Below are positions 41,025 to 51,273 of a DNA stretch of 64,000 nt, piece by piece. This DNA comes from Vulcanimicrobiota bacterium. GTDB lineage: Bacteria; Vulcanimicrobiota; Vulcanimicrobiia; Eremiobacterales; Eremiobacteraceae. The translations under genes and the position numbers were made by a program. Positions within the stretch are counted from its first letter, which is position 1; each line of letters opens with the position of its first letter. The stretch spans positions 2,016,001 through 2,080,000 of the forward strand of contig CAWETU010000001.1 in the NCBI GenBank assembly GCA_963812135.1, given 5' to 3'. The notes beneath the pieces were generated by a model. It was not told the origin of the DNA. It saw only the letters and a program-made list of their open reading frames with translations, and made no database searches.

Positions 41025-42331
41025 ATTTGGCTTAGGAGGCGGCGGGCGTCGTCCGCGTACAGGGGATGGAACTGCGGATTAAGCTCGAGCGCGCGCGAGA
41101 GGCGGCGCTTTGCTTCCGCGCTGTCGCCGTTGCGCAGCGCGATGACGCCCGCATGGTACTGCAGGCGGGCATCTTGCGTGTCTAACGCGATGGCCCGGCG
41201 GGCATGAAGCTGTGCTTCGCGCCATTGCCCGGCCTGCGCAAGCGCCCAGGCTAGCGTGTCCTCGGCGAAGACGTCGTCGCGTACGATCACATCGCGGCGC
41301 GCGATCGCGATCGCGTCGGCGGTGCGGATGCCGTGCTCAGAATAGTAGACGGCGAGCGCCCGATCGTTGACGCGCTGCGCGTTGCCGATGCGCTCGATCG
41401 CGAGAATCGTGTCCTGCGTGACCTTTGCGCCTTGCAGATCGCCGAGCGCCCGCTGGGCATCGGCCTTGTAGCCGAGCGTCTCGGGCAACGGCAGGATGTC
41501 GGCAGCACGCGTGGCTGCGTCGAGCGCCTCGCGCCAGCGCTTTTGCCCGAGGTACATGCGCGCGAGCGCGTTGTACGCGCGCGGATACGCAGGGAAGATG
41601 GCCAACGCTTCGTTGAAACGCCGCTCTGCGGTGGAGACATCGCCGACCGCCCAAGCGAGCTCGCCGTCGCGGAAGTGGTACCAGGCGCGCGCCTCTGCAG
41701 GCGAGTCGATGATCGAGTCGACCGAGGCCATGGAGCGTTGGGTCAGACGGCGCGCCTCTGAGATATCGCCGCTCAATTCATCGTAGCGGGCCTGGGCGGT
41801 GTAGAGCGCGACATCGACCTCAGGGCCAGGGTGGGCCGAGCGAAGCAATCGCTCCGCGTCGTCGTAGCGCCCGAGTTCCGTGTCGATGCTCGCAACCTGT
41901 GCGATGGCGCCCGAGTTCCACGGCTCGATGGCGTGCGCGTCGAGCGCATAGGTCAGCGCGCTCTTGAAGCGATGCAGCGAGAGCAGCGCCGACGCGAGCG
42001 TCATGTCCGCGGTGACGTTGTTGCGCGGTTGATACACGAGCGAGCGGCGCGCGACGTTTTCCGCGCGTAGCAGATCGCCGATGTCGCCTGTTTCGCGAAA
42101 GCGCATGAGATATTGCGTTGCGAGCATGCGCGTGATCAGCTGGTCAGGATTCTTCTTGACGTCGCGTTCGAACACCGCGACGATCGCGTCGCGATGCAGA
42201 TAGTCGGCCATCACCGGCGCGGGTGACGGCGCTGCCGCCATCGCGCGGTTCTGGCTGAGGATGAACGCCGGCCACGCAGCGATGGCCACGAAGGCCACCG
42301 CTGCAAGGACGACGAGTGTTCGGACGTTCAC
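41021..42331 (-). CDS. Exported TPR protein (DUF4331-associated type)
   Basis: GTG start overlapping the upstream TAG, N-terminal TM, TPRs, DTLAWAL and ALELNPQF. Confidence 0.87.
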   Translation of the reverse strand: MNVRTLVVLAAVAFVAIAAWPAFILSQNRAMAAAPSPAPVMADYLHRDAIVAVFERDVKKNPDQLITRMLATQYLMRFRETGDIGDLLRAENVARRSLVYQPRNNVTADMTLASALLSLHRFKSALTYALDAHAIEPWNSGAIAQVASIDTELGRYDDAERLLRSAHPGPEVDVALYTAQARYDELSGDISEARRLTQRSMASVDSIIDSPAEARAWYHFRDGELAWAVGDVSTAERRFNEALAIFPAYPRAYNALARMYLGQKRWREALDAATRAADILPLPETLGYKADAQRALGDLQGAKVTQDTILAIERIGNAQRVNDRALAVYYSEHGIRTADAIAIARRDVIVRDDVFAEDTLAWALAQAGQWREAQLHARRAIALDTQDARLQYHAGVIALRNGDSAEAKRRLSRALELNPQFHPLYADDARRLLSQM

Positions 42332-43587
42332 TAGTTCGGGATGCCCACGTACGGGAACGAACCGAGATAGTGATGCCCATCGGGTCCAACGTTGTCGGTC
42401 GTCAAGCACTTGGATTCTTTCCCGTCGTCGGGGGTCAGCTTGAGCGCCGGCAACGTGCCGCCGAAGATCGCGCCGAGCGAGATGTCGATGACATCGTCAT
42501 TCAGTCCGCGGCCCCCGAACGTGCTGCCTGTCGCGCCACCGGTCTCGGTGCCGAGATAAGCGGCTTTGACGCCCATCTTCGAAAGGTCCACGAGGATCTC
42601 GTCGGGGATGAGCACGGCTTTGAGTGTGTTGGCAATCGCGTCCGACCGGCCGGCGACGGTCTTCGTGAAGCTCACGATGTCGTCAGGCAGATACGGATCG
42701 CTCGTCGGAGTGCTGCGGTTGGTCTTGTCGTGGCGTTCGAATGACTCGAACGCCTCTTTGACCGCGGGCCGGCCCAGGCGCTCGATCTGCGTGTAGGTGC
42801 CGCCGTACGGTGAGGCGGAGTTGCTGATCGATGTCGAAGCCCACACGTTGATCTTGCCGGGCGTGCCGCCGGCCGAAGCCAGCGCCGTGCGCGGCAACTC
42901 GATCACGAGCGACAGCACATTGAACTTGTTGGCTGACAAGAAGTCCTGCGATGGCGTCGTGTCGCAGCTGCTGCCCGCTGCAAATCCGCGGAAACCGGTA
43001 GCCGTCGCCGCCGGCACTGTCTTCCCATTGAGGTGGTAGCCGAAGTTGCGGTCTGGGATGATCGCGAAGAAGCGCGCGAGGTCGAAGAAGAACGGATCCT
43101 CACGCGGGCCTGCGAAGACGGTGACGCCGCCTTTGAGCTTCGAGACCGTGTTGTACTTGAACGTGCCCGATGAGCCGATCCACGTGTTCTCTGTGCCGAC
43201 CTGATTCGGTTTGCCCGGGCCGTGGAGCGTGATCATCTGCGAACCGTCCTTCGGCTCGCTCGCCGAGAACTGGATCACCAGATCCTCGACATGGTCGCCG
43301 GTGTTGTCGATGCGCAGCTGATACATCACGCCGGGGTCGAAGAACGTCGAGGGGCCTTGACCCGCAGGGATGAGCGGGTGCACGTCCATCGCGAGCACGA
43401 CGTTGTTCGTGTCGGCTGCGGGGAACACGTACACGTCGGTGATGTCCGCGCCGGGTCGCGCGAGCACTGCCGGCGAGTCGGCGTGGTCCGAGCTGACGCC
43501 CGGGCGTGCGCCGTAGAGCGAGAACGCCGTGCCGAGTCCGGCAAGCACGGCGACGGCGGCGACGATGCCGATGGCTTTCCGATTCAT
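42331..43587 (-). CDS. DUF4331 family exported protein (in frame with the upstream NiCoT gene as sequenced)
   Basis: GGAGG at 43599-43595, MNRKAIG signal peptide, SDHADSP, DITDVY, FAGPREDPFFFD, QIERLGRP and GRGLNDDVID motifs. Confidence 0.85.
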   Translation of the reverse strand: MNRKAIGIVAAVAVLAGLGTAFSLYGARPGVSSDHADSPAVLARPGADITDVYVFPAADTNNVVLAMDVHPLIPAGQGPSTFFDPGVMYQLRIDNTGDHVEDLVIQFSASEPKDGSQMITLHGPGKPNQVGTENTWIGSSGTFKYNTVSKLKGGVTVFAGPREDPFFFDLARFFAIIPDRNFGYHLNGKTVPAATATGFRGFAAGSSCDTTPSQDFLSANKFNVLSLVIELPRTALASAGGTPGKINVWASTSISNSASPYGGTYTQIERLGRPAVKEAFESFERHDKTNRSTPTSDPYLPDDIVSFTKTVAGRSDAIANTLKAVLIPDEILVDLSKMGVKAAYLGTETGGATGSTFGGRGLNDDVIDISLGAIFGGTLPALKLTPDDGKESKCLTTDNVGPDGHHYLGSFPYVGIPN

Positions 43588-44409
43588 CTTGAAACCTCCA
43601 GTAGAGCCGGCGCCTTCGGGATCTCGGGCCGACCAGGTGAACGTCCATGCGAAGACGAGTAGGAGCGCGCCGACGAGGACCGCGCTCACCGCGAGGTCCG
43701 GCACCGGCGATTCCCATCCCAGCGCCTGCGCCATTTCGTAGCTTGCTACGAACAGCGCGAGCGCCGTGACGGCAATGATCCACACGCGGGTCGCGCGCAC
43801 GAGTTCGAGCGGCTGGCGCGTGCACAGTTTGTAGACCAGCAGGCTGTCGAGCGTGTCGGTGACGGCCATGCCGAACGAGAATAGCGCGCCGATCAGCAGG
43901 CCAAGCAGGATGCCGCCGCCCGCGGTCAGCGCGAGCGCGTACGTCGCGACTTGACTCGACGTGTCAAAACCAAGGCCGAAGAGGAGTCCGATCGGGATCG
44001 CGGCCAGCGGACTGGTGGCGGCGCGCAACGATTTGGGGAGCAGCGCGTTCTTCAGACCGGCGATCGGGCCGGTGCGGTGCAGGATCAGCTGGCGGATGTT
44101 CAAGCCGGCGATCGCGAGCAGCGTCACGATGCTCACCCACGTGCCGATCGTCTCGAGCAGCGCGCCATGGAGCGCGAGCCGGCTGCCGAACAGGCCCGCG
44201 AGCGCCGCGATCGAGAGCACCATCACGGAGTGGCCGCCGGCGAACAGGGTTCCCACGAATCTGCTGAGCCGTTCTTTGGCGCCGAGGCTGTTGCGCGTCA
44301 GGTTATCGATGGCGGCGAGATGGTCGGGATCGGCGCCGTGGCGCAGGCCCAGCACGAAAACCGTGAACGCGATGACCCCGATCGACAACGGCGCTGCGTG
44401 GGGGATCAT
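43584..44409 (-). CDS. HoxN/HupN/NixA (NiCoT) high-affinity Ni/Co transporter
   Basis: GLRHGADPDHLAAID and LFGLGFDT signatures. Confidence 0.88.
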
Positions 44410-47929: not shown

Positions 47930-48445
47930 TTAGCCTTTGTAAATCGTCGCGATGTTATCCTTGAACGCGTCGGGCGTCATGAAGCCGCGGTAGACTTTGC
48001 GCACGATCCCGTCCTTGTCGATGAAAAAACTCGCCGGCAGCGAGCTGACTTCATACGTGTCCGCGAAGCTGCCTGGGTCGAGCGCCACCTGGTAGACGAT
48101 GCCGAATCTTTTCAGGAAGGGAAGCACGAGCTCGGCGTCCTCTTGCTCGTCGATCCCGAGGAAGACGACCTTTCCTTTATATTCAGGATAGCTCTTCACG
48201 AGGCCGGGCAGCTCTTGCTTGCACGGCGGGCACCACGTGGCGAACGCGTTGATGAAAACCGGCTGGCCGCGGAACTGGGCGAGCGTCACGGGTTTGCCGT
48301 CGACATCCTTGAGGGCGATCGGCGGGGCCGGCTCGCCGACGACCACGCCATGGGCAGGATGGTTCGTGCTGCCTTGCTTGGCGCTGCAGCCGGTCGCGAT
48401 GACGGCCAGGAGCGGTAGTAAAAGGAAGAAACGCGTTTTTGTCAT
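47930..48445 (-). CDS. TlpA/ResA thioredoxin-like lipoprotein
   Basis: Lipobox IATGC; ATWCPPCKQELP. Confidence 0.92.
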   Translation of the reverse strand: MTKTRFFLLLPLLAVIATGCSAKQGSTNHPAHGVVVGEPAPPIALKDVDGKPVTLAQFRGQPVFINAFATWCPPCKQELPGLVKSYPEYKGKVVFLGIDEQEDAELVLPFLKRFGIVYQVALDPGSFADTYEVSSLPASFFIDKDGIVRKVYRGFMTPDAFKDNIATIYKG

Positions 48446-48453
48446 GTCCTGTG

Positions 48454-50359
48454 CTATGCGCCTGCGGCGGTGAGGATGAGGTCGGTGCCCCACCCGAGCA
48501 TGAATCCTAAGAACACGCCGATCGTGGCGAATTCCTTATAGCCGATGCGGCCGCCGGCCTTCGTCATCTCCGTGATGACGTAGATGATGGCGCCCGCGGC
48601 CAGCGTGAGGAACAGCACCGACAGCGTCGGCGAGACGAAGTGGTAGCCGATGACCGTGCCGAGGAATGTGGGGCCGCCGCCGATGAGGCCCAAAATAACG
48701 ATCTCGCGCAGACCGATGCGGTGCTCCGCGCCCACGAGCGGCGCGGCGATGCCGAACCCTTCGGTCATGTTGTGCAATCCGAAACCGATGATGAGCAGCA
48801 CGGCGAGCTCGATCGCGCCGGTCGCGGCGGATTGGCCGATCGCCAGCCCTTCGCTGAAGTTGTGCAGGCCGATGCCGAGCGCGATGGTCGTCGCCAACGC
48901 CATCGGACTCAAGATGCCGCCTTCGGCCACCGCTTCACGCTGCTTTGCCAGCACGATCCGCGAGAAATACACGAGACCGATAAGACCGAGCCCGAATCCC
49001 GCGAGATAGACAAACGCGAGCCAGACGAATGGTCCGGCGCCGGCGCCTTGCTGCATTTTGCCGAGTGCTTCGACGATTGGTTCGCCGGCTTGGCGCAAGA
49101 TGTCGAACAAGAGGAAGAACAACACGCCGATCGCGACGGCGTTGAGAAACGCGATCCATCGTCTGGACACGCCGCGCATCGTCGCAAAGGGTAGGCCCAA
49201 GAAGATCGTCAGGCCGGCGATGGCGCCGAGGATCAGCGTCTCGGTTTGCGTCATCTTCGGGCCGCTCGCGCCGGAGCCGTTCTGGGGCGCTGCGGCCATC
49301 TGGTCTTCCATGGCCATCGAAGCGAATCGATCGGGCGCGCCTTCGTATTGGACCGCGGAGACCAGTCCCCCGGGACCGCGGTCGCCGTTCATCATGTGGT
49401 CGGCGACATGGCAATGGAACATCCACGTGCCCGGCTGCGCGTCGGCGATGAATTCGATGTCGCGCGTCTCACCCGGACCAAGCGTGACCGTGTCCATCAT
49501 CTGGCGCGCGTTAGCGGCGACCGGTTGACCGTCGAATGCGACGATCTGGAAATGGTGGCCATGCAGGTGCATCGTGTGGAATTCGGTGCCGCTGATGTCG
49601 ATCTCGCGCACGCGGATGCGCTGGCCGCGCTTGACCGTCGAAGGGCTTGCCGAGCGGATAGCTCTTGCCGTTGATGCTGAAGTAATTCTCGGTCGAGCTG
49701 AAGACTTTCCACGACGAGATCAGCATGAGATAGTCGCGGTCAGGCTTGGGACCGGTTGCTGGAGTACGCGGCTCGACGACTACGGCGCCATACAGGCCGC
49801 GGTCGAGTTGATTCAGATCGTCGACGTGCGTGTGATAGATGTACGTGCCGGGCTGCTGCACGACGAACTGATAGATGAAGCTTTGCCCTGGCGGCACCGG
49901 CGCTTGGCTGAATCCCGGCGAGCCGTCCATCGCAGCGGGTACATTCATGCCGTGCCAGTGGATGGTCGTCGGCGCCGGCAGATGGTTGGTGAGGATGACG
50001 CGTAGCGTGTCGCCTTGGCGAACGTGGATGGTCGGACCCGGCACGGTGCCGTTGAACGTCCACGCTTCGACGGTGACGTTTGGCGCCGGCGTCCACGGCT
50101 TGACTTCGGCGATGAGATGAATCGTTTTTGTCGAGCCGGTGGTCAGCGGCGGGAGCAACGGCAGCAGCGAGTAGTCGCGCTGCGCGTCGGCCTCGGCTTG
50201 CGCGACGATCGACTGCGAAACGTCGGCGGCGAGCGGGCCCGCCGGGGCGCTGCTGAACGCATCGTCCGCTCTCGCCTGTTGCGTCGCGGGCGTCAGGCAT
50301 GCGGCACTGAAGGCGATGGCGATGCCGGCGAGCGCGAACCGCCGCGCGAAGTCGTGCAT
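48454..50359 (-). CDS. Two-domain multicopper oxidase fused to a ZIP metal transporter; apparent +1 frameshift at ~49639
   Basis: ARRFAL Tat-like signal; HWHG, YHTH, HTMHLHGH and HCHVADH Cu motifs; GLHNFSEG and GLHNMTEG ZIP motifs. Confidence 0.82.
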
Positions 50360-50366
50360 GGGTCCG

Positions 50367-51113
50367 CTATTTGCCTTTCGCCGGTTTTTGGTGCGGATGT
50401 TTGACGGTGATCGCGCCGGCGAGCTGCGTGCTCACCGAGTGCGTCTTGCCGTTGACTTTGAGGGTGAGCAGGCCGACGGCGCGCTCGAACTTTTCGACCA
50501 TGACGGTGGTGCCTGGGCGCAGGCCGAGTTGCGCGAGGTACTTCAAGAGCTCGGGCATGTCGTGCTTGACTTCGAGCACCTTGGCGCTCACGCCGAGCGG
50601 CAGCTCGACCAGACCGATCGCGTCCTCGTGGTCCCAGAGCGAGCCGTCTTCACGCGGGATCGCGTGGCCGTGCGGGCACGTCGTCGGCTCGCCCGTAAAA
50701 CGGTAGAGATGTTGTTCGACCAGCGGCGAGATCGCGTGCTCGAGTCTGCACGCCTCTGCGTAGGCGAACTCCCATGGGATTTGGAGATGATCGACCAGCA
50801 ATCGTTCGGCGAGCCGCTGACGTCGCAGCGTGAGCGCGCCGATGCGCGCGCCGGACGACGTGGGCATCACGCCGTGGCGTCCTTCGTGTTTGACGTAGCC
50901 GTCGGCATCGAGTTTCTTAAGCATCGCCGACGCGGATGCGGCTGAGACGGAGAGCTCGGCGGCGATCGCCGACGTGGAGACGGGGTCGCTATCGCGTTGC
51001 AAGCGCACGATCGTCTTCAGATACATCTCGACGTTCGGGCTGACCTCAGGCTCTGAGGTCGGCTCGACGAGCGGAGTGCGCAAGGCGGAGTTGACGCTGC
51101 GTTGTGTGGCCAT
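50367..51113 (-). CDS. DtxR/MntR-family metal-dependent repressor with FeoA-like C-terminal domain
   Basis: EMYLKTI, RLAERLL, EACRLEH and CPHGHAIP motifs. Confidence 0.93.
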   Translation of the reverse strand: MATQRSVNSALRTPLVEPTSEPEVSPNVEMYLKTIVRLQRDSDPVSTSAIAAELSVSAASASAMLKKLDADGYVKHEGRHGVMPTSSGARIGALTLRRQRLAERLLVDHLQIPWEFAYAEACRLEHAISPLVEQHLYRFTGEPTTCPHGHAIPREDGSLWDHEDAIGLVELPLGVSAKVLEVKHDMPELLKYLAQLGLRPGTTVMVEKFERAVGLLTLKVNGKTHSVSTQLAGAITVKHPHQKPAKGK

Positions 51114-51128
51114 GTTAGCCTTGCCTAA
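51110..51128 (-). promoter_or_regulatory. DtxR/IdeR-like operator overlapping the repressor start codon
   Basis: TTAGGCAAGGCTAACATGG matches 14/19 of TTAGGTTAGGCTAACCTAA; core inverted repeat TTAG-N6-CTAA. Confidence 0.7.
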
Positions 51129-51273
51129 TTCGGGGCCTCAGGCTTGGTTATCCTGTGCCATGAGGCGGGACTTAATGGCCTTAGGGGTTGTACCGGCGCT
51201 TCGAGGGGTAAATCGGAGATAGCGAAACATTGTATGCTCTTACGTACGTTCAGTGTTAGGGGTATCAAACTCA

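Follow-up and report, generated by a model that had tools for sequence, protein, structure and literature searches.

An oxidase–ZIP fusion behind a DtxR/IdeR-type operator in Eremiobacteria: a candidate for oxidase-coupled metal uptake, most likely of iron

Results and Discussion

The stretch of DNA analyzed here (the window) comprises 64,000 nucleotides from a Vulcanimicrobiota bacterium of the family Eremiobacteraceae (assembly GCA_963812135.1, contig CAWETU010000001.1, positions 2,016,001 to 2,080,000 of the forward strand). On its minus strand, a single gene joins a two-domain multicopper oxidase to a ZIP transporter, behind a repressor gene of the DtxR/IdeR family and a palindromic operator (Table 1). 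An earlier sequence-only reading had proposed such a fusion under DtxR/MntR control as a redox-coupled machine for metal import or detoxification. Comparison of the source genome (G000) with 60 relatives (61 genomes in all, in families f1, f2 and f3) shows that the single-chain fusion is real and conserved, and its role is most likely oxidase-coupled uptake of a metal, namely iron.

Fusion Gene

In the assembly, the gene is read in two frames. The frame from 50359 encodes a signal-like N-terminus and cupredoxin domain 1 (motifs HWHG and YHTH), whereas the frame from 49638 to the stop at 48454 encodes domain 2 (HTMHLH, HCHVADH), the linker and the full ZIP domain. Contigs from all four sequencing runs, X1 to X4 (X1 may be the source sample; X2–X4 are separate studies), have one base fewer than the assembly at 49638/49639, and each run yields a contig that spans the linker with no further gap. 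The surplus base is an assembly error or a private variant. Its absence from all four runs rules out a pseudogene as the general state. The junction between oxidase and ZIP lies in one open frame and, as previously claimed, does not depend on the frameshift: it is stop-free, the G/C fraction at third codon positions is 0.75–0.95 throughout the linker, and no Shine–Dalgarno-like run was found in the sequence inspected upstream of MTQTE.

The database protein P0001, which is 96% identical over the domain-2/ZIP part, is a single open reading frame (ORF) of 634 amino acids. An uninterrupted match from domain 2 to ZIP is present in 47 of the 60 relatives (29/31 in f1, 18/28 in f2, 0/1 in f3), or in 44 of 57 once the unpublished genomes G010, G013 and G016 are dropped. 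In a phylum-wide sample of 151 genomes, 58 have a strong match to the ZIP part (E below 1e-49), all within the same class and all in open frames of at least 566 amino acids, except for one at a contig end and the window itself; the homologues carry the NCBI name Eremiobacterota. Among the best 150 matches in a search of 1.84 billion cluster representatives, the junction is spanned, with the oxidase N-terminal, by two full-length clusters and two fragments. Two genes fused by an assembly error are ruled out by the 47 relatives, the intact P0001 and the four runs, and the fusion suggested by the sequence-only reading is thus borne out.

Table 1. Positions of the features in the window
Feature	Position	Strand	Basis or remark
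Oxidase–ZIP fusion gene	50359–48454	minus	two frames, switch at 49638/49639
N-terminal signal peptide (about aa 1–31)	50267..50359	minus	sequence; AxA cleavage motif
Oxidase domain 1	49766..50131	minus	Pfam Cu-oxidase_3; alignment with 2ZWN/3G5W; conservation in 130 homologues
Oxidase domain 2	49339..49738	minus	T1 site and T2/T3 histidines; conservation in 130 homologues
Single surplus base splitting the gene	49639	.	absent from contigs of 4/4 runs
Flexible Met-bearing linker	49255..49338	minus	25–44 aa with 1–7 Met in homologues
ZIP transporter domain, 8 helices	48454..49254	minus	Pfam Zip; model helices; BbZIP match
DtxR/IdeR-family repressor gene	50367..51113	minus	Pfam HTH, dimerisation and FeoA/SH3 domains
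Main operator TTAGGCAAGGCTAA, 14-bp DtxR/IdeR-type palindrome	51115..51128	minus	ends just before the dtxR start codon
Weaker operator-like site ATAACCAAGCCTGA	51138..51151	minus	23 bp upstream of the main operator
TlpA/ResA-like lipoprotein gene	47930..48445	minus	Pfam

Operator and Repressor

A TTAGG-N4-CCTAA operator with at most one mismatch to TTAGGNNNNCCTAA, the single-dimer IdeR consensus (PMC8464063), stands at the operon or gene start at all 38 fusion loci for which upstream sequence exists, and a weak tandem site 22–23 bp further upstream recurs in most relatives. The operator also matches the motif of the Haloferax iron regulator TroR, TTTAGGC-NNN-CCTAAAANAN (PMC10783522). It is shared by f1 and f2, including f2 loci in which the repressor gene lies elsewhere: the repressor is directly upstream of the fusion in 20/20 f1 loci with upstream DNA and in 0/18 f2 fusion loci, and a repressor match is present in 60 of the 61 genomes. 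Within the source genome, no site other than the main operator scores as high as the training sites do (22.9; the next site scores 11.7). Genome-wide counts of the operator pattern showed no excess over a reversed-pattern control, and therefore only its position and recurrence are used here. The DtxR-family control proposed earlier is supported.

The primary-site residues Met10 and Cys102 of the repressor are kept (EMYL, EACRLEH), as they are in 18/18 aligned f1 orthologues. The DtxR family comprises Fe(II)/Mn(II) sensors, in which these two residues are associated with Fe(II) selectivity (PMC11672702). The repressor can be described as IdeR-like, although by score it is not an IdeR orthologue.

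Genome G040, which has no fusion, ties the operator to known iron uptake genes: tandem sites precede an FTR1 permease with a TonB-receptor-like gene, as well as feoAB. FTR1 and FeoB each occur in one of the 61 genomes, both times in G040, and the connection is that of this one genome. Operator sites away from the fusion number 35, of which 33 were read; 12 precede a Cyc2-like gene, 2 the FTR1/receptor pair, 1 an NRAMP gene (in G035) and 18 other genes, including nifH/reductase, pitA and atpC. Many of these 18 are probably chance occurrences. Ahead of stand-alone ZIPs from Actinomycetota and Chloroflexota, an upstream site within two mismatches is found at 45/76 loci versus 20/1961 background windows, and at 10 of 14 hand-picked actinomycete loci the site extends to a 19-bp IdeR box with 3–5 mismatches.

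In both families the operator directly adjoins the start codon; the metal-loaded repressor would therefore shut the gene, as it does for uptake genes. This speaks against an exporter or detoxification system resembling ferroportin with hephaestin, in which the ZIP would release Fe(II) and the oxidase would trap Fe(III) outside, and so does the sharing of the operator with feoAB and FTR1. Ferroxidase-coupled efflux in mammals (PMC11817551) and iron export by ZIP13 (PMC12406047) offer precedents for such a system, which we nevertheless find hardly credible here.

The regulatory data also bear on manganese. In this alternative, a manganese importer would be under an MntR-like repressor, and the oxidase would remove competing Fe(II) as Fe(III), thereby giving selectivity for Mn(II). 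The NCBIfam scores lean to the MntR model, the regulon in the source genome consists of one operon, the operator precedes an NRAMP gene in G035, and an Arthrobacter operon combines an oxidase and a ZIP with an Asp/Glu-type repressor (see below). Conversely, feoAB and FTR1 of G040 stand behind this very operator, every class orthologue read has Cys102, and a separate repressor of the Asp/Glu type adjoins an MntH-like NRAMP. We regard a manganese importer as improbable; manganese and zinc each have a system to themselves. The second, Asp/Glu-type DtxR paralogue stands beside NRAMP at 23 of the 30 best NRAMP loci, also in the source genome. There, the repeat GTTAACCATGGTT overlaps the start of this DtxR gene ahead of NRAMP (G000:C1:2215590-2215620, L110); it recurs in L123 and L125 and is likely the gene's own operator.

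Two further operator positions deserve mention as observations in their own right. In 12 genomes of the class, the operator stands at the start of a Cyc2-like gene, usually followed by YceI (L075:3534-4667, L077, L079, L080, L082–L088 and L090). The protein has an N-terminal AIPxFAHQY-x3-CxxCH motif, which we take to be a resemblance to Cyc2. It has no match in Pfam or NCBIfam, and an Atlas search returned only unnamed clusters plus one with Porin_O_P in 20% of its members. A Cyc2-like gene, not necessarily the same one, in an Eremiobacterota genome assembled from a metagenome has been taken to suggest Fe(II) lithotrophy (PMC8357290). If it is iron-repressed, the gene described here points to iron scavenging rather than to Fe(II) lithotrophy. 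Furthermore, nifH and a ferredoxin-NADP-reductase-like gene flank a perfect operator in G040 (L071:3502), a hint that nitrogen fixation may be under iron control there.

Oxidase Domains

Conservation was evaluated in 130 homologues, namely 113 database proteins of at least 560 amino acids and 17 proteins from f2 loci. Domain 1 contributes histidines H134, H136, H176 and H178 to the type 2/type 3 (T2/T3) copper cluster and has no type 1 (T1) site, its T1 His, Cys and His being replaced by Thr, Thr and Gln. Domain 2 holds the T1 ligands H261, C316 and H321, which are kept in 130/130 homologues, and the T2/T3 histidines H264, H266, H315 and H317. All eight T2/T3 histidines are kept in at least 129 of the 130, which confirms the complete copper ligand set read earlier from the sequence. 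The axial T1 position is likely Leu332. Because the T1 ligands of domain 1 are lost and the T1 site lies in domain 2 only, the ligand layout places the oxidase in type B of the two-domain multicopper oxidases, as defined in PMC13151041; the nearest solved relatives (2ZWN, 3G5W and 3GDC) are type C.

A trimer model of the oxidase scored 0.96 versus 0.00 for the best of three controls, with runs agreeing in at least 97% of contacts and a pLDDT of at least 94; the mark set for this score is reached by 20/30 solved homo-pairs and 1/23 single chains. In the model, H134/H136 meet H264/H266 of the neighboring subunit. Similar trimers have already been solved, and the model therefore demonstrates likeness only and not binding. 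As had been anticipated, a trimer-type oxidase is predicted.

Three acidic residues flank the T1 ligands in sequence, E224 (130/130), D320 (130/130) and E259 (122/130). Most reverse-order fusions have them too, as do lipoprotein oxidases of the Bacillota type, and they are absent from three other close oxidases read. These residues are relevant to the possibility that the oxidase is a cell-surface laccase that destroys ligands of the catechol or humic type, freeing iron for the ZIP. The closest solved relatives are two-domain laccases, and type B enzymes oxidize phenols (PMC13151041). However, the conserved carboxylates beside T1 suggest a cation as substrate, and the Fe(III) released in this way would still have to be reduced or to find a pore that carries it. 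Such a role appears highly improbable.

Other oxidases of this kind were encountered. The source genome has a second two-domain oxidase (L326:7067-9440, C1 about 1339000-1341500) with a Tat-like leader (SRKDVLK), a Met beside T1 and no operator; upstream of it lie a Cyc2-like start and a gene for cytochrome c, both frameshifted-looking. Oxidase-only relatives in the class are a gene of G032 (L068:5832-7049), without the operator, and P0140, without the T1 cysteine.

ZIP Domain and Related Fusions

The transporter part matches the structure of BbZIP (7z6m; Z 18.2, rmsd 3.5, 234 aligned residues), with a hidden Markov model E-value of about 1e-11. Its Pfam Zip match (E 1e-7, 31.6 bits) is below the 35.1 cut-off, and it scores 50 bits to the ZupT model, whose cut-off of 252 is not reached. 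The metal site reads HNFSEG/HNMTEG, within a clade pattern of HN-x-S/A/G-EG and HN-x-TEG. The eight-helix fold and the ligands in transmembrane helices 4 and 5 (TM4/TM5) are those of BbZIP and ZupT. The window ZIP differs from them in having Thr where TM6 has Glu, and in lacking both Pro within the TM4/TM5 motifs and a His-rich cytoplasmic loop. Zinc uptake is unlikely, given that this loop is missing and that a separate Fur-family gene, the sole one, adjoins znuA.

The same ZIP clade also occurs with C-terminal partners: a two-domain oxidase (P0122, P0124, P0382 and others, and Deinococcus WP_239052023), an EfeO-type cupredoxin plus helical domain, a single cupredoxin, a cupredoxin plus DyP peroxidase, and cytochrome c. 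The accessory types of Ftr1/EfeU permeases are likewise oxidase, cupredoxin, DyP peroxidase and cytochrome c. In a 42-row ZIP tree, the C-terminal fusions form a branch with 99/95 support, separate from the N-terminal ones (80/83), whose neighbors in the tree are stand-alone ZIPs. Given the opposite domain order, at least two separate oxidase–ZIP fusion events took place. Further members of these architectures include a large family of about 590 amino acids combining ZIP, a cupredoxin-like domain and a helical His/Glu-rich domain (P0282, P0307, P0368; named members are Acidobacteria), ZIP–cupredoxin–DyP proteins (P0383, P0391) and a ZIP–cytochrome c protein (P0398).

The ZIP metal-site residues do not differ among the N-terminal fusions (130), the C-terminal fusions (107) and the stand-alone ZIPs (76) compared. 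Since the site is unchanged, the ZIP may be an Fe(II)-carrying iron importer whose oxidase guards the mouth of a promiscuous channel, open in iron starvation, by oxidizing Cu(I). Several observations fit such a guard: the oxidase-free stand-alone relatives with the same operator, the Met residues always present in the linker (1–7), the placement of the Deinococcus reverse fusion among CDF, P-type ATPase and copper-binding genes, and its compatibility with the manganese-regulated Arthrobacter pair. In CueO, a Met two residues before the first T1 His accompanies Cu(I) binding. The fusions have Glu there in 122/130 cases, and it is the stand-alone paralogue of the source genome that has Met. Fusion would also be unnecessary for a guard, and the DyP, cupredoxin and cytochrome c fusions would be left unexplained. 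We consider the guard unlikely, though a serious contender.

Export, Linker, and Neighboring Genes

The sequence-only reading had proposed Tat export from an RR signal. The RR is present (ARRFAL), but the motif is not conserved: RRxF[LIV] occurs in 0/113 homologues, any RR within the first 40 amino acids in 35/113, and P0001 reads AQRLAL at this place. A Tat substrate with a conserved S/T-R-R-x-F-L-K leader is accordingly not supported, and Sec export of the oxidase is likely. In an eight-helix ZIP, the two termini lie on the outer side, so that fusion at either of them places the oxidase outside. The linker region 350–367 has low pLDDT, and the full-length model (predicted TM-score 0.51) is uninformative on the geometry between oxidase and ZIP.

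The TlpA/ResA-like gene had been put forward as a redox partner, which the comparison does not support. A TlpA ORF lies downstream of the fusion in 5 of 40 loci and is directly adjacent in just 3, whereas in 17 loci the next gene is acetyl-CoA synthetase on the opposite strand. It is probably co-transcribed with the fusion in the source genus and is not a conserved part of the system. Elsewhere in the window (42331-44409), NicO and DUF4331 form one ORF; in relatives (L033, L034), NicO ends at about amino acid 269. GGAGG precedes MNRK, and the joining probably reflects a lost stop or a local artefact.

Comparison with Known Systems

A full-text literature search, with most subscription papers outside its scope, found no publication on an oxidase–ZIP fusion, and nothing on a link between the two proteins was found in PMC9240420 and PMC12406047. 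The fusion is apparently undescribed, as first suggested. That novelty does not extend to the pairing itself: ammonia-oxidizing archaea have adjacent MCO1 and ZIP genes (NVIE_000600/NVIE_000590), for which oxidation of Cu(I) and its uptake have been proposed without validation (PMC7785015). Like the window protein, whose axial residue is likely Leu, this pair sets a two-domain oxidase with an axial Leu beside a ZIP, and a Fet3-like coupling was proposed for it (PMC7785015). It differs in consisting of separate genes and in the proposed metal, and the likeness is drawn from the published description.

The archaeal proposal suggests a copper importer, in which the oxidase would convert Cu(I) to Cu(II) for import by the ZIP. 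Both archaeal genes rise modestly under copper limitation (log2 fold changes of 0.81 and 1.33; PMC7785015). The Met residues of the linker would suit such a function. On the other hand, the operator is common to iron-uptake genes. By analogy with yeast, a copper-starved ferroxidase would produce secondary iron starvation and the same induction. DtxR-family proteins, moreover, are sensors of Fe(II) and Mn(II) (PMC11672702), and a copper importer seems decidedly improbable.

The Arthrobacter sp. FB24 operon on plasmid 1 (L315:5869-8982) places the gene of a two-domain oxidase (PDB 3GDC) immediately ahead of the gene for a ZIP that shares the His/Asn/Glu site, opposite a DtxR-family gene of the Asp/Glu type. 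In contrast to the window oxidase, the FB24 enzyme is encoded separately, is of type C (T1 in domain 1) and has a twin-arginine leader. Rhodococcus plasmids carry an oxidase–ZIP–Rieske cluster. In the oxidase-dependent bacterial iron transporters EfeUOB and FtrABCD, a permease is served by modules of the cupredoxin, DyP peroxidase or cytochrome c kind, the same set that the ZIP clade has acquired by fusion. That permease is of the Ftr1 type, for which a search of the 61 genomes gave a match in one. The two-domain oxidases mgLAC (2ZWN), BCO (3G5W), SLAC and CjMCO share the fold (Z 28) and have the inter-subunit copper cluster that is predicted for the window oxidase, and SLAC and CjMCO have its type B layout (PMC13151041). 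Those closest in sequence belong to type C, in which the other domain carries T1, and none of them is fused to a transporter.

Yeast Fet3p/Ftr1p is a close parallel, with an outside multicopper oxidase coupled to a permease, acidic residues by T1 and control by iron shortage (PMC11817551), the last of these being likely for the fusion as well. The window protein differs in being one chain, in its trimer-type oxidase of two domains, and in having a ZIP without the two REXLE motifs of Ftr1-family permeases; a Pfam search of it gave no FTR1 match, the membrane part being ZIP. It may work like Fet3/Ftr1 but is not a member of that system.

Proposed Function

Iron uptake in some form is the likely function, and we hold this with good confidence, because feoAB and FTR1 of G040 have the operator in common with the fusion and the repressor has Met/Cys ligands. 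Of the metals named earlier, iron is thus favored by operator and regulator, Cu(I) and Mn less so, and a redox-coupled import role is supported as a reading of the sequences. As for the mechanism, we tentatively propose, at a little short of an even chance, that the oxidase makes Fe(III) from Fe(II) with O2 and that the tethered ZIP takes up the Fe(III). As iron falls, the repressor, sensing Fe(II), would free the promoter. The oxidase would be exported by Sec and trimerize, placing three ZIPs below it, and the conserved carboxylates E224, E259 and D320 beside the T1 copper would bind Fe(II), as Fet3 does with an acidic pocket (PMC11817551). The periplasmic oxidase would then convert Fe(II) to Fe(III) using O2 and pass it to the tethered ZIP for import. 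A ferroxidase under iron shortage is useful only if the permease takes its product, which makes a Fet3/Ftr1-like hand-over the simplest reading. Its weakest step is the carriage of Fe(III) by a ZIP.

Several observations weigh against this proposal, first of all in the transporter. The unchanged metal site gives no sign of remodeling for Fe(III); no Fe(III)-specific changes were found in the 130 and 107 fusions relative to the 76 stand-alone ZIPs, the fused ZIP has no REXLE motif, and ZIPs are classed among ferrous transporters (PMC11817551). In type B trimers, the T1 sites point to the central tunnel (PMC13151041). No oxidase was found near stand-alone ZIPs (0/76 loci, up to 5 kb per side, many shorter), nor any ZIP, FTR1 or DtxR near the closest stand-alone oxidases (0/80 metagenome loci, many on short contigs). 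The regulatory evidence has its own difficulties. The ancillary histidines of the repressor are lost: in f1, Gln replaces H79 and the residue at H98 varies. Glu takes the place of Met10 in 6/6 f2 orthologues read, with Cys kept, and the NCBIfam score is 124 bits to the MntR model (cut-off 350) versus 96 to DtxR (cut-off 290). The DtxR neighbors of stand-alone ZIPs lack the Cys in 8/8 parsed, and in Arthrobacter FB24 the ZIP is distant, with an N-terminal soluble domain, and the repressor is Asp/Glu (Mn-type). Finally, three NRAMPs and parts of FecCD-type ABC systems are encoded in the source genome, none of them preceded by the operator, and FTR1 and FeoB were not found in ten other near-complete genomes that lack the fusion; the fusion need therefore not be the only iron route.

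A broader and more doubtful proposal is that the widespread ZIP clade constitutes a second, unrelated family of oxidase-fed iron permeases. Its members would carry Fe(III) from a fused or partner oxidase, would have independently recruited the helper modules of Ftr1/EfeU several times, and would provide the main iron entry of Eremiobacteria.

Conclusions

To our knowledge, the only transporters for which coupling to an oxidase is established are permeases of the Ftr1 type and ferroportin, and ZIPs are regarded as carriers of divalent ions. With oxidase and ZIP naturally on one chain, the question of coupling and trivalent transport becomes directly testable, and Deinococcus sp. KNUC1210 is a cultured source of the reverse fusion. 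The arrangement also poses a structural puzzle, that of a trimeric head on an elevator-type transporter. If the broader proposal of a second permease family is true, a trivalent ion would for the first time be shown to pass through a ZIP, and the archaeal MCO1/ZIP pair would be recast as a system for the uptake of iron, not copper. The fusion, if it works as proposed, would give a physiological job to a two-domain oxidase, a group whose roles are poorly understood (PMC13151041), and would show how the abundant Eremiobacteria of acid soils obtain iron without FeoB or Ftr1.

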